From the UHGV virus genome UHGV-0073881: DNA of 64,000 nt; one strand, written 5' to 3'. The DNA comes from a virus. Below the pieces are notes generated by a model, which was not told where the DNA came from, did no database searches, and saw only the letters and a program-made list of their open reading frames with translations. Positions 24,088 to 25,900 of the stretch are shown piece after piece (the stretch's first letter is position 1; each line of letters begins with the position of its first letter). A program made the position numbers and the translations under genes.

Positions 24088-24179
24088 AACTTACTCCTAT
24101 ATAATATTTTGTATACCTACGAGTATAAAAATAAGCTATAACACCTGACTTGTCAACAGATTTTATAGCTTATTTGGCA

Positions 24180-24450
24180 GATTTTTTATAAAGCTACTGC
24201 CATCCTTCCATACCTTACCACACAAGACCAAACCATGCCGTACTCCACTTCACAGGACCAAGCATCACTTAAAAATCCTCTTAGAAGACTCTTAAGTGAT
24301 GCAATCGAATTTTAATGTAGCTCCGATTAACTACCCATACCTGACCGAACCTTACCGAGCCTTACCAGACACTACAGAACAGGACCGCACCGCACCTCAT
24401 TAAAAGACCCTCTTTAAAGACCTTTTAATAAGGAGCCTCCGAAGAGGCTA
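24180..24450. repeat. non-coding modular repeat region A
   Basis: no ORF of 60 aa or more; + strand strongly G-poor; shares modules with region B: 11-bp inverted repeat 24262-24302, covarying hairpin 24303-24340, box 24393-24430, short direct repeats CCTTACC and ACCGC; hairpin AGCCTC-CGAA-GAGGCT at 24431-24446. Confidence 0.6.
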
Positions 24451-24460
24451 CCTAGTCAAC

Positions 24461-24901
24461 TTAGAAGGGTTTTCTACGTTGCTTGTTAATATTAGCTTTC
24501 ATAGCAGCTAAGTGGTTTTGCTGTTCAATCAGTCGTGAACGTTCTTGATGGCTAAGTGTCATAGTGTTCACATTCTCAATTGCTTGAGTGGCTTGTTTTA
24601 AAGCACGACCAATCTTACCAGACATTTTACGTTTTGCAATAGTTGCTTGATGTTTTGGCTCAACTACTCGATAACCGACACCCATTGAAGCAACCAGATA
24701 AATCTTCTCTTCTTTAAGAAGCTTCTCAATAAACTTCTCAAGTCGATTTAGGCGTGTAAGTGCGTAAGCCTTCATTTCATCTTCGTACTTAACAATGTCA
24801 CCTTGATAAGTTGGCTTCACAATACCTAAGAAGGTGTCCATCTCAGAATGTGATACGGTGTCACCGTAACTAAACTTTGCTGCTAATGCTTTTGTATTCA
24901 T
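24461..24901 (-). CDS. hypothetical protein (cassette gene 2)
   Basis: 146 aa with basic C-terminus; flanked by the repeat regions. Confidence 0.5.
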   Translation of the reverse strand: MNTKALAAKFSYGDTVSHSEMDTFLGIVKPTYQGDIVKYEDEMKAYALTRLNRLEKFIEKLLKEEKIYLVASMGVGYRVVEPKHQATIAKRKMSGKIGRALKQATQAIENVNTMTLSHQERSRLIEQQNHLAAMKANINKQRRKPF

Positions 24902-24903
24902 AA

Positions 24904-25491
24904 TTAAACATTACCTTCTGAAATAATTTCTACAGAAAAACGACCAAAACGTGGACGCCAATCACCTACACCACAAAGATTTCCAGCATTTTCCAGAACC
25001 ATCAAGAGTTCTTCTTTAGTAATTTGTTCTTCATCAAACATCAAACCGAACTCTACAGACCAGTCACGGAAGATTGGACGATAGCTCATAACTCGTGCTG
25101 TACCAACTTTAACGGATTTAGCATAAATGAAATCTGGATTTTTAGCAAGCTCTTTTGGGTTTGCTGGACAGTTCTTGATAGTCATTGGGAAGACTACATC
25201 TGTCAACATAATGGCTCGGTCAATTACCTTACCAAGTTTGTTGAGTTTTGCACCAGACTTGATACAAGCCTCAATCATCTCACCATTCATAACAAAACCA
25301 AGTTGCTCATCATAGTAACAAGCAGTTACTAGGTGACTCTCTGCTAAGAGAGCATAGTCTTCGTCAGTCTTTTTACGTTTACTGGACAGAGACTTGTGAT
25401 ATTTCGTCAGAGGGTTTAATGGGTCTGACAAAGTATCTGCATGGCTCAGGAAAGGACGAGTACCAGTGATTTTGATATTTAACAGTTTCAT
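24904..25491 (-). CDS. hypothetical protein (cassette gene 1)
   Basis: track ORF begins at a GTG (25506); an in-frame ATG at 25491 has GGAG 9 nt upstream, so start set there; no recognisable motif. Confidence 0.5.
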
Positions 25492-25559
25492 AGCATTTAG
25501 CTCCACACTTTAGTTGATTGTTAAGTTGTTTGTAAAGAACCCTCAACAGAAGACTCTTT

Positions 25560-25840
25560 AGAAACTTGGTAGATTTTTAACGTGGCTACTACCATCCACC
25601 CATATCATACCAAACCTGACCAAATCTTACCGCACCCAACATCGCCTAACCTTACCACACCTCATTAAAAGACCCTGTTTAAAGACCTTTTAAAAAGGTA
25701 AGTCTCATTTTAATGTAGCTGAGACTAACTACCCATACTAAACCTCACCGCACCTCACCGAGCCGCGCATTACCAAACCAGACCAAACCTTGCCTCACAT
25801 CACTTAAAAATCCTCTTAGAAGACTCTTAAGTGATGCTGG
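25560..25840. repeat. non-coding modular repeat region B
   Basis: G-poor + strand; same modules as region A in a different order: box 25658-25698, covarying hairpin 25701-25740, inverted repeat 25798-25837, direct repeats CCTCACCG and ACCAAACC. Confidence 0.6.
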
Positions 25841-25900
25841 TGAGTACCCGTTGGTTTATGCTGCTTAGTATACTCACCAAATTTTCTAGGTCAACAACTT

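Follow-up and report, generated by a model that had tools for sequence, protein, structure and literature searches.

Within the 64,000-nt stretch of the viral genome UHGV-0073881 analysed here (the window), two minus-strand genes lie between long non-coding regions that share repeated sequence, raising the question of what these flanks do and whether they belong with the genes that they enclose. The original prediction, made without database searches, considered a recombination-delimited cassette, a pair of structured non-coding RNAs and an iteron-bearing origin. Because the two proteins are 97% (Vipr) and 144/146 (Vap) identical to those of phage SUSP1, we assign the locus with high confidence to the type II VIPR (Viral Interference Programmable Repeat) systems of the SUSP1 clade, here with four guide RNAs (vrRNAs) of ~90 nt. 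VIPR was described in 2026 in two preprints (bioRxiv 10.64898/2026.04.26.720920 and 10.64898/2026.04.26.720927; hereafter the VIPR preprints), from which RNA expression, filament formation and silencing are taken; protein identity, repeat code, pseudoknot covariation, strand, target matches and the lack of self-targets were computed here. System type, clade and the structure of a near-identical protein have already been published in these preprints; the locus, rediscovered from the raw letters, is no artefact. Gene pair and flanks, initially regarded as possibly unrelated, form one system, as the Vipr match and the VIPR preprints indicate, and structured RNAs were the right kind of answer, except that there are four rather than two and that they are guides for the protein encoded between them.

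The layout of the locus is confirmed as first described. The gene pair has the predicted boundaries (Table 1), and its flanks of 373 nt (24088-24460) and 409 nt (25492-25900) stand out in a surrounding stretch whose other genes, all on the minus strand, mostly abut or overlap. Three long modules are common to the flanks, each present exactly twice with one copy per flank: one of 33 nt without a mismatch (24266-24298 and 25801-25833), one of 31 nt and one of 30 nt; shuffles lead one to expect no such matches, and no further copy occurs elsewhere in the window. The differing order of the modules comes down to two hairpin types (T1 and T2) joined to two tail types in all four combinations. The reported depletion of G on the plus strand amounts to 3-10 G per 61-67 nt in the four repeat tracts against 21% G window-wide, with a GC skew down to -0.57, and the short repeats picked out earlier (CCTTACC, ACCGC, CCTCACCG and ACCAAACC) read, in reverse complement, as a YNNGG pattern with a strict 5-nt period on the minus strand. 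Runs of at least six YNNGG pentamers occur four times in the window, all in the two flanks and all on the minus strand; shuffles expect 0.05. Read on this gene-sense strand, each flank consists of two units of about 135-140 nt, in which a long G·U-rich hairpin is followed by in-register YNNGG pentamers (13, 12, 12 and 11 in the four units) and then by a 37-nt pseudoknot tail, and an alignment of the four units has invariant G, G and T columns every 5 nt.

The absence of recognisable motifs from the two genes holds for Pfam, NCBIfam and PADLOC and fails for the PDB. A sequence search of the PDB (phmmer) matched the 195-aa protein to 36pp_D, 'SUSP1 Vipr protein', over residues 1-195 (E 4e-127; 189/195 identical), and 13 of the 14 published contact residues are kept in the window Vipr (H17, K33, R39, E71, M72, K82, G87, K88, R138, C173, D177, W178 and R179). 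The fourteenth, published as T175, is V in the window and in the deposited SUSP1 sequence as well and therefore marks no real difference. As called by the open reading frame program, vipr is 200 aa long and begins with a GTG at 25506; the start of the solved SUSP1 protein corresponds to the ATG at 25491, giving 195 aa, and a GGAG ribosome-binding site lies upstream of this ATG. The 146-aa gene starts 3 nt past the end of vipr and corresponds, at 144/146 identical residues, to the SUSP1 gene directly downstream of vipr; it is taken as vap1 from its position beside vipr rather than from an accession. In the VIPR preprints, the accessory gene of the SUSP1 operon is named vap1, its product is predicted to bind DNA, and its co-expression raised protection. 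Pfam gave only a weak DUF6744 match for the 146-aa protein, and searches of both proteins against Pfam, PHROGs, PADLOC and NCBIfam returned unnamed PHROGs and sub-threshold matches only. Both vipr and vap are labelled 'hypothetical protein' in every annotated record examined. At the loci of distant Vipr homologues (L020-L025, 36-40% identity), no long intergenic flank lies immediately upstream of the gene; guides were not searched for there.

According to the VIPR preprints, a VIPR system, a phage weapon that finds and silences DNA of rival genetic elements, comprises the minimal RAMP-family protein Vipr, vap and vrRNAs of ~100 nt, which consist of 9-16 YNNGG repeats and an invariable 3' pseudoknot tail and whose hallmark is a conserved GGY with a hypervariable NN. 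Vipr is described there as a minimal RAMP/RRM protein with a G-loop and a thumb, and cryo-electron microscopy (cryo-EM) places one protomer on each repeat, with GGY buried and NN paired with DNA such that two bases are read and one is skipped. An R-loop 'triplex' is formed and transcription is silenced, and in the SUSP1 clade most natural guides are directed at a satellite phage found in E. coli genomes. Expression of ~100-nt vrRNAs and their co-purification with Vipr are published for SUSP1 only.

Our own repeat profile, derived before the VIPR preprints were found from 605 pentamers in 50 distinct tracts at 23 loci (the window and 22 relatives), equals the published YNNGG code: T (0.89) or C (0.11) at position 1, any base at positions 2 and 3, G (0.79) but never C at position 4, and G (0.98) at position 5. 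Tract length (45-95 nt) is an exact multiple of 5 nt in 48 of the 50 tracts, and among phages with 96-99% identical Vipr and Vap both the sequence of the tracts and their number of repeats are hypervariable. Fresh pentamer slippage is visible in the tracts of some relatives, for example GGTCA three to four times in a row. The 37-nt tail is an H-type pseudoknot with stems of 4 and 5-6 bp (15 distinct tails), with 95.3% of cells paired and compensatory changes in nine of ten pairs against 32-42% paired in controls with slid partners, a score to be read in the light of a structure derived from the very tails scored and of tails that represent only four paralogue classes. A scan of 23500-26500 with Rfam cmscan (E up to 10) gave chance-level snoRNA and riboswitch matches only, none of them inside a vrRNA unit, and no vrRNA family came back from Rfam 15.

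Strand assignment comes from the hairpins. As minus-strand RNA they have uninterrupted stems of 12-19 bp that include 3-6 G·U pairs, which turn into C·A mismatches on the plus strand, and whole units fold at -45 to -49 kcal/mol on the minus strand versus -25 to -27 kcal/mol on the plus strand. Because these G·U-dependent hairpins form on one strand only, the functional strand is the minus strand. The hairpins T1, T2 and T3 share the core AAGRGTCTTY-loop-RAGGGTYTTT, separate the guides and precede the vipr ribosome-binding site, and the 3' arms of T1 and T2 keep to the repeats' 5-nt register; T3 was found at the loci of 19 relatives. These hairpins are not described in the accessible text of either VIPR preprint, and in that of the discovery paper the word 'hairpin' occurs once, in the legend on the tail structure. 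Possible roles are that of an RNase III-type processing site or that of a 5' stop for the Vipr filament, which the cryo-EM intermediates of the VIPR preprints suggest to form in the 3'-to-5' direction. Because mature vrRNAs are ~100 nt long and the predicted repeats plus tail add up to 87-97 nt here, the hairpins are probably removed.

The ends of the transcript can be placed with some likelihood. After the stop codon of the ligase gene, the same promoter element (TTGACA in most) is conserved in relatives, including those that lack vipr, and the copy in the window is likely to be the start of a transcript that carries the upstream guides, vipr and vap. Two relatives (L018 and L028) have an extra insert of ~150 nt between the ligase gene and the vrRNA promoter, absent from the window, that appears to encode a small hydrophobic peptide. 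At the other end, the AU-rich hairpin with its U-run is conserved in relatives and is the likely terminator of the VIPR transcript; a scan for consensus terminators did not call it, and we therefore infer its role rather than take it as given. The small UUCG hairpin past vap1 is probably not a full terminator, since it has no U-run.

Altogether, these observations lead us to propose the following model. One minus-strand transcript, probably from the host-type promoter just after the ligase gene, would run in the order T1, B2, T2, B1, T3, vipr, vap1, T2, A2, T1, A1 and terminator and would give four vrRNAs of 87-97 nt, each with 11-13 YNNGG repeats and a 37-nt H-type pseudoknot. One Vipr protomer would sit on each repeat with GGY buried, as shown for the 97%-identical SUSP1 protein, leaving the two variable bases of each repeat exposed to pair with DNA by reading two bases and skipping every third; the variable dinucleotides would therefore be the spacers of the system. 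The Vipr filament would hold an R-loop and block transcription of the target, and two of the guides would be aimed at a ~12-kb satellite in E. coli chromosomes, a probable parasite of this phage.

The satellite was traced in bacterial genomes. When 5,426 complete E. coli genomes were searched by BLAST with a flank, vrRNA-like sequence appeared in 153 chromosomes. In E. coli EC12 (L029 4941-16900), the satellite is an element of ~12 kb inserted in a DUF72 gene, with genes for a serine recombinase, a baseplate protein, a tape-measure protein and an HNH endonuclease, and with a 2.6-kb unannotated stretch that contains one vrRNA (14-15 repeats and a pseudoknot tail); the element has no vipr. Further copies were found (L030-L032 and L051-L059), several of them broken by insertion sequence elements. 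The satellite carries Felix-like tail genes and probably parasitises this phage.

Taking as targeting a match of at least 80% of the NN bases under the one-base-skip rule, we scanned the EC12 satellite with the NN codes of 48 guides of relatives, 21 of which reach 80-96%; the skip-0, skip-2 and skip-3 rules gave background only. The published one-base-skip rule and satellite target are thus reproduced here. The window's own guides were scanned against 13 satellite-bearing loci (four E. coli chromosomal and nine IMG/VR proviral). B1 matches the Shine-Dalgarno/start-codon region of the satellite tape-measure gene at 20/22 in two IMG/VR proviral contigs (L056 and L053) and, on the same site, at 17-18/22 in three chromosomal copies, and A1 matches the satellite serine recombinase gene at 18/20 (L030) with the skipped base at the codon wobble position; other skip rules gave 16 or less for the window guides on the satellite. 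A1 is a 2-nt variant of the terminal downstream guide of SUSP1, and since the two mismatched dinucleotides of A1 are exactly those at which that guide deviates from it, the SUSP1 guide fits the recombinase site at 20/20 by inspection. Within the window itself, the best scores of its own guides (17/24, 17/22, 15/22 and 15/20) are all below 80%.

Several points weigh against this reading of the locus. Both VIPR papers are preprints. That T1, T2 and T3 separate guides or mark processing sites, and where the transcript ends and how it is processed in this phage, we infer from the sequence. At the B1 site the skipped base falls on codon position 1 instead of the usual wobble position; because the site spans the ribosome-binding site and start codon, codon phase may be irrelevant there. 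Finally, B2 and A2 are without a target, their best scores on the 13 satellite-bearing loci being 17/24 and 14/22. Exact scans for the gapped patterns of all four guides gave no match in viral contigs; for B2 and A2 there was none in genome contigs either, and metagenomes yielded chance matches only. A sub-pattern of nine A2 dinucleotides had 11 metagenome matches, which were rejected as chance since none extended. B2 and A2 may aim at unsampled variants or may be inactive.

Table 1 Features of the VIPR locus, with the sites in vipr that match guides of vipr-less phages (positions in the window)
Feature	Position	Strand	Remarks
Predicted sigma-70-like promoter	25867..25894	-	TTGACC-16-TATACT, 10/12 match; directly after ligase stop codon
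T1 inter-guide hairpin	25798..25838	-	19-bp stem, 3-nt loop, 4 G·U pairs; 41-nt module
vrRNA 'B2', 97 nt	25701..25797	-	13 YNNGG repeats 25733-25797, pseudoknot tail 25701-25737; NN code GA AA TT CT TT AA GC TC GA GC GA TT AT
T2 inter-guide hairpin	25660..25698	-	3' arm ends TGAGG, in register with following repeats
vrRNA 'B1', 92 nt	25568..25659	-	12 repeats 25600-25659, pseudoknot tail 25568-25604
T3 hairpin	25533..25560	-	T1/T2 core (AAGAGTCTTC-loop-GAGGGTTCTTT); between last upstream guide and vipr ribosome-binding site
vipr	24904..25491	-	195-aa RAMP-family protein from ATG; matches PDB 36pp_D
Site in vipr matched by EC6 guide (candidate anti-vipr site)	25430-25452		15/16
Site in vipr matched by JH2 and SP3 guides (candidate anti-vipr site)	25463-25488		17/18; over start codon region
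Site in vipr matched by single guides of vipr-less relatives (candidate anti-vipr site)	24995..25023	.	Codons 157-166; Ro111lw 20/20, skipped base at wobble; SP22, GEC_vB_BS and PMBT20 19/20
vap1	24461..24901	-	146-aa predicted Vipr-accessory protein
Small GC-rich UUCG hairpin	24434..24449	-	AGCCTC-TTCG-GAGGCT; 11 nt past vap stop codon
T2 inter-guide hairpin, second copy	24395..24433	-	18-bp stem, 5 G·U pairs
vrRNA 'A2', 92 nt	24303..24394	-	12 repeats 24335-24394, pseudoknot tail 24303-24339; NN code GC GC CC TC AG CT AA TC AA TC CA AT
T1 inter-guide hairpin, second copy	24262..24302	-	One stem-closing base differs from the 25798-25838 copy over 41 nt
vrRNA 'A1', 87 nt	24176..24262	-	11 repeats 24208-24262, pseudoknot tail 24176-24212
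AU-rich hairpin, then UUUUUAU	24122..24175	-	Putative terminator after last unit
Predicted promoter of next gene	24128-24156	-	TTGACA-17-TATTTT; -35 box in loop of AU-rich hairpin

The carrier is a Felix O1-like (Ounavirinae) myophage. The 2.6 kb around the locus match 260 phage records at 80-95% identity, nearly all of them Felix O1-like myophages, and the matching Felixounavirus and relatives infect Escherichia, Salmonella, Shigella and Citrobacter. Literature searches on Felix O1, on wV8, on the KhF3 repeats and on Felixounavirus transcriptomics turned up no account of the region. In the public records KT184315 (KhF3), NC_012749 (wV8), MZ726791 (ASO1A) and PP886229 (E9), parts of the guide arrays are annotated otherwise, as 'direct repeat ... 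possible binding site of StbAB', 'DR_4', a rho-independent terminator (the T1 hairpin) or small hypothetical coding sequences on the opposite strand. The SUSP1 system (NC_028808.2, L014) resembles that of the window in its position downstream of a DNA ligase gene, its YNNGG repeats, its pseudoknot tail classes and its satellite target family. It differs in having one guide upstream and three downstream, as published, where the window has two and two, and three of the four NN codes of the window differ from those of SUSP1. The window phage is another Felix O1-like phage than SUSP1, with about 90% DNA identity to the nearest public records.

Of the other explanations, the one that survives best, and that we nevertheless regard as unlikely, is that the flanks are mainly recombination substrates for the gain, loss or swap of a two-gene cassette and have no RNA function. 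It agrees with a clear presence/absence polymorphism, vipr being found in 118 Felixounavirus-like records and the flanks being matched by 231, as well as with the near-identity of the window's two T1 copies. Between the ligase gene and the next gene, the vipr-less phages EC6 and ASO1A carry only one unit, made of promoter, T1, repeats, tail and terminator and consistent with fusion at the T1 hairpin, and close relatives carry 1 to 3 units per flank. In relatives with VIPR the upstream flank measures 394-710 nt and the downstream flank 249-543 nt, corresponding to 1-3 guides per side; guide number per flank and NN content differ widely among them (L001-L019 and L026). What recombination leaves unexplained is a strict GGY with free NN, tract lengths in multiples of 5, a covarying pseudoknot and the target matches; moreover, the guides of vipr-less phages carry different NN codes and are therefore not simple deletion products. 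The cassette of the original prediction is apt as a description, since about half of the related phages lack vipr-vap and the extra guides, and not as the function of the repeats: gain and loss, both of guides and of the cassette as a whole, are evidently promoted by the repeated hairpins and tails as a by-product. A similar arrangement is that of the promoter-early stem-loop (PeSL) elements, mobile regulatory cassettes of T4-type phages reportedly described by Arbiol, Comeau and Krisch in 2010, in which small gene cassettes, carried by some close relatives and missing from others, are likewise bracketed by repeated promoter/stem-loop modules. The window differs from PeSL in that its repeats are functional guide-RNA units of the encoded system, and there is no evidence for circular cassette intermediates.

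The iteron-bearing replication origin of the original prediction, or a partition site bound by a DNA-binding protein, is far less probable still. Short direct repeats do adjoin replication genes (the ligase gene, with a polymerase gene a few kb off), and the KhF3 record with its 'possible binding site of StbAB' is annotated in this sense. Iteron origins and StbA- or ParR-type centromeres have double-stranded direct repeats of ~9-22 bp with a cognate Rep or partition protein nearby, and we know of no double-stranded iteron with a period as short as 5 nt. The 5-nt period of the window's repeats and hairpins whose G·U pairs form on one strand only speak against such a site, no Rep, ParB, Par, StbA or Stb homologue was found in Pfam, PHROGs and NCBIfam/PADLOC scans, the protein between the flanks is a solved RNA-binding RAMP protein, and the repeat tract matches the published RNA ligand of Vipr.

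We attach hardly any more weight to the idea that the repeats act through nucleic-acid chemistry as such, by Rho loading on the plus strand, by two-tetrad G-quadruplexes or as an R-loop tract on the minus strand. Over 45-95 nt, C makes up about 43% of the plus strand and G 9%, and GG tracts with 3-nt spacing could form G2 quadruplexes. The plus-strand profile of R, C (0.98) and C (0.79, else A/T), however, fits Rho's preference for YC poorly, quadruplexes or R-loops leave the pyrimidine after GG and the pseudoknot unexplained, no plus-strand promoter feeds the region, and every conserved position is accounted for by the cryo-EM structure.

Scarcely better placed is the possibility that the RNAs regulate the gene pair instead of guiding DNA recognition, acting as sponges or attenuator leaders that an oligomeric RNA-binding protein binds in the manner of TRAP (trp RNA-binding attenuation protein), which wraps 11 (G/U)AG repeats. 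It would account for triplets at a 5-nt period, for 9-19 repeats with free spacers and for the two units that sit in the vipr 5' leader, and a TRAP-like oligomer reading GGY is the closest idea reached from sequence before the system was identified. TRAP, with its (G/U)AG-N2-3 RNA sites in 9-11 copies, and Vipr are indeed alike as oligomers that read a triplet at a 5-nt period; Vipr reads GGY instead of (G/U)AG, forms a helical filament in place of an 11-mer ring and has DNA as its target, and the spacers, ignored by the oligomer in both, are informative in Vipr. Under one skip rule the NN dinucleotides match foreign DNA far above chance, which a sponge does not need, and DNA binding and silencing are shown in the VIPR preprints. 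The other ideas from sequence were dropped: an iteron origin or StbAB site, a Rho rut site, G2 quadruplexes, an R-loop origin and a T7-type primase array (GGTC), the Rho, quadruplex, R-loop and primase readings being weak because they leave pyrimidine, pseudoknot and strand unexplained; a CsrA or Hfq sponge, a tRNA CCA-end or anti-Shine-Dalgarno mimic and the RNA repeats of a type III toxin-antitoxin system; and a lambda-nut-like boxA and phage late promoters in the tail loops.

A CRISPR array was rejected as well. CRISPR arrays consist of near-identical direct repeats of 21-48 bp and unique spacers of similar length, usually with cas1/cas2; here hairpin modules lie 87-97 nt apart with repetitive sequence between them, there are only 2 + 2 units, and Pfam, NCBIfam and PADLOC found no cas genes at the locus. 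The likeness lies in the effector: according to the VIPR preprints, RAMP protomers polymerise on a guide RNA and form an R-loop in VIPR as in the backbone of Class 1 CRISPR-Cas (Cas7 on CRISPR RNA), and in both a thumb flips bases out at a fixed period. Unlike Class 1 CRISPR-Cas, VIPR is phage-encoded, has no CRISPR array, no cas1/cas2 and no protospacer-adjacent motif (PAM), and uses a noncontiguous guide in which two of every five RNA bases read two of every three DNA bases; its outcome is silencing, with no cleavage. In the window, it is G·U-rich hairpins that recur between guides, and the spacer information is distributed over the pentamers.

The single guides of vipr-less phages (orphan guides; loci L027 and L033-L038) may point to a further layer of conflict around the VIPR system. 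Those of eight vipr-less phages carry at least four NN codes, three of which match the window's vipr under the one-base-skip rule, at three sites (Table 1); other skip rules (skip-0/2/3 controls) gave 12-16. All three sites lie inside vipr, which makes up 0.9% of the window, and a 20/20 match in the window has a chance expectation of about 1e-7. Orphan guides match vipr in all 17 VIPR-carrying relatives tested, at 16/16 to 20/20 in many. The site of the EC6 type (L003-L019 positions 2540-2562, vipr codons ~13-21) is matched at 16/16 in eight relatives and at 12-14/16 in nine, diverging although the Vipr proteins are about 97% identical; this divergence could be escape from anti-vipr guides. 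For the orphan guide of ASO1A no match was found. It is tempting to speculate, with a confidence somewhat short of even, that the guide-only vrRNA of vipr-less phages might borrow the Vipr of a co-infecting rival to shut down the rival's vipr-vap operon, as a protein-free countermeasure against VIPR.

As for guides aimed at other VIPR systems, the discovery paper in its main text names the Pseudomonas clade alone, for which guides were gathered through Vipr homology, and the word 'orphan' is absent. Because a collection through Vipr homology, if also used for the SUSP1 clade, misses vipr-less phages, anti-vipr guides of this kind may be unreported there. The guide-only anti-vipr observation would then be new, and the supplementary data of the discovery paper may cover it.

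Two neighbouring features can be added. Just downstream of the VIPR locus, a 126-aa gene (23707-24087, minus strand) encodes a product with a signal-peptide-like N-terminus that is 30-48% identical to its counterparts in relatives, as against 96-99% for Vipr/Vap and 86-98% for the ligase; this allele is either hypervariable or replaced. A further AT-rich intergenic region of unusual length (31500-31680) has two overlapping plus-strand TTGACA boxes and several TTAAAAGA-like motifs and is without YNNGG repeats.

VIPR is a second form of RNA-guided DNA recognition, structurally related to the first and logically different from it, with a gapped code, no PAM and a protein of 20 kDa, and it has been proposed as an ancestor of the CRISPR RAMP proteins. 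The window is a natural instance of VIPR with its own set of four guides and adds little to the basic discovery; the locus illustrates that VIPR can be recognised from raw sequence by its G-poor flanks, 5-nt period and G·U hairpins. Its remaining interest lies in the guide set of this phage, in the undescribed hairpins between guides and in the guide-only anti-vipr observation. Guide number and content turn over fast among phages with 96-99% identical Vipr and Vap, and if the proposed action of orphan guides is true, a phage would disarm its rival by RNA alone, hijacking the rival's own effector, which would add a new layer to the conflict.

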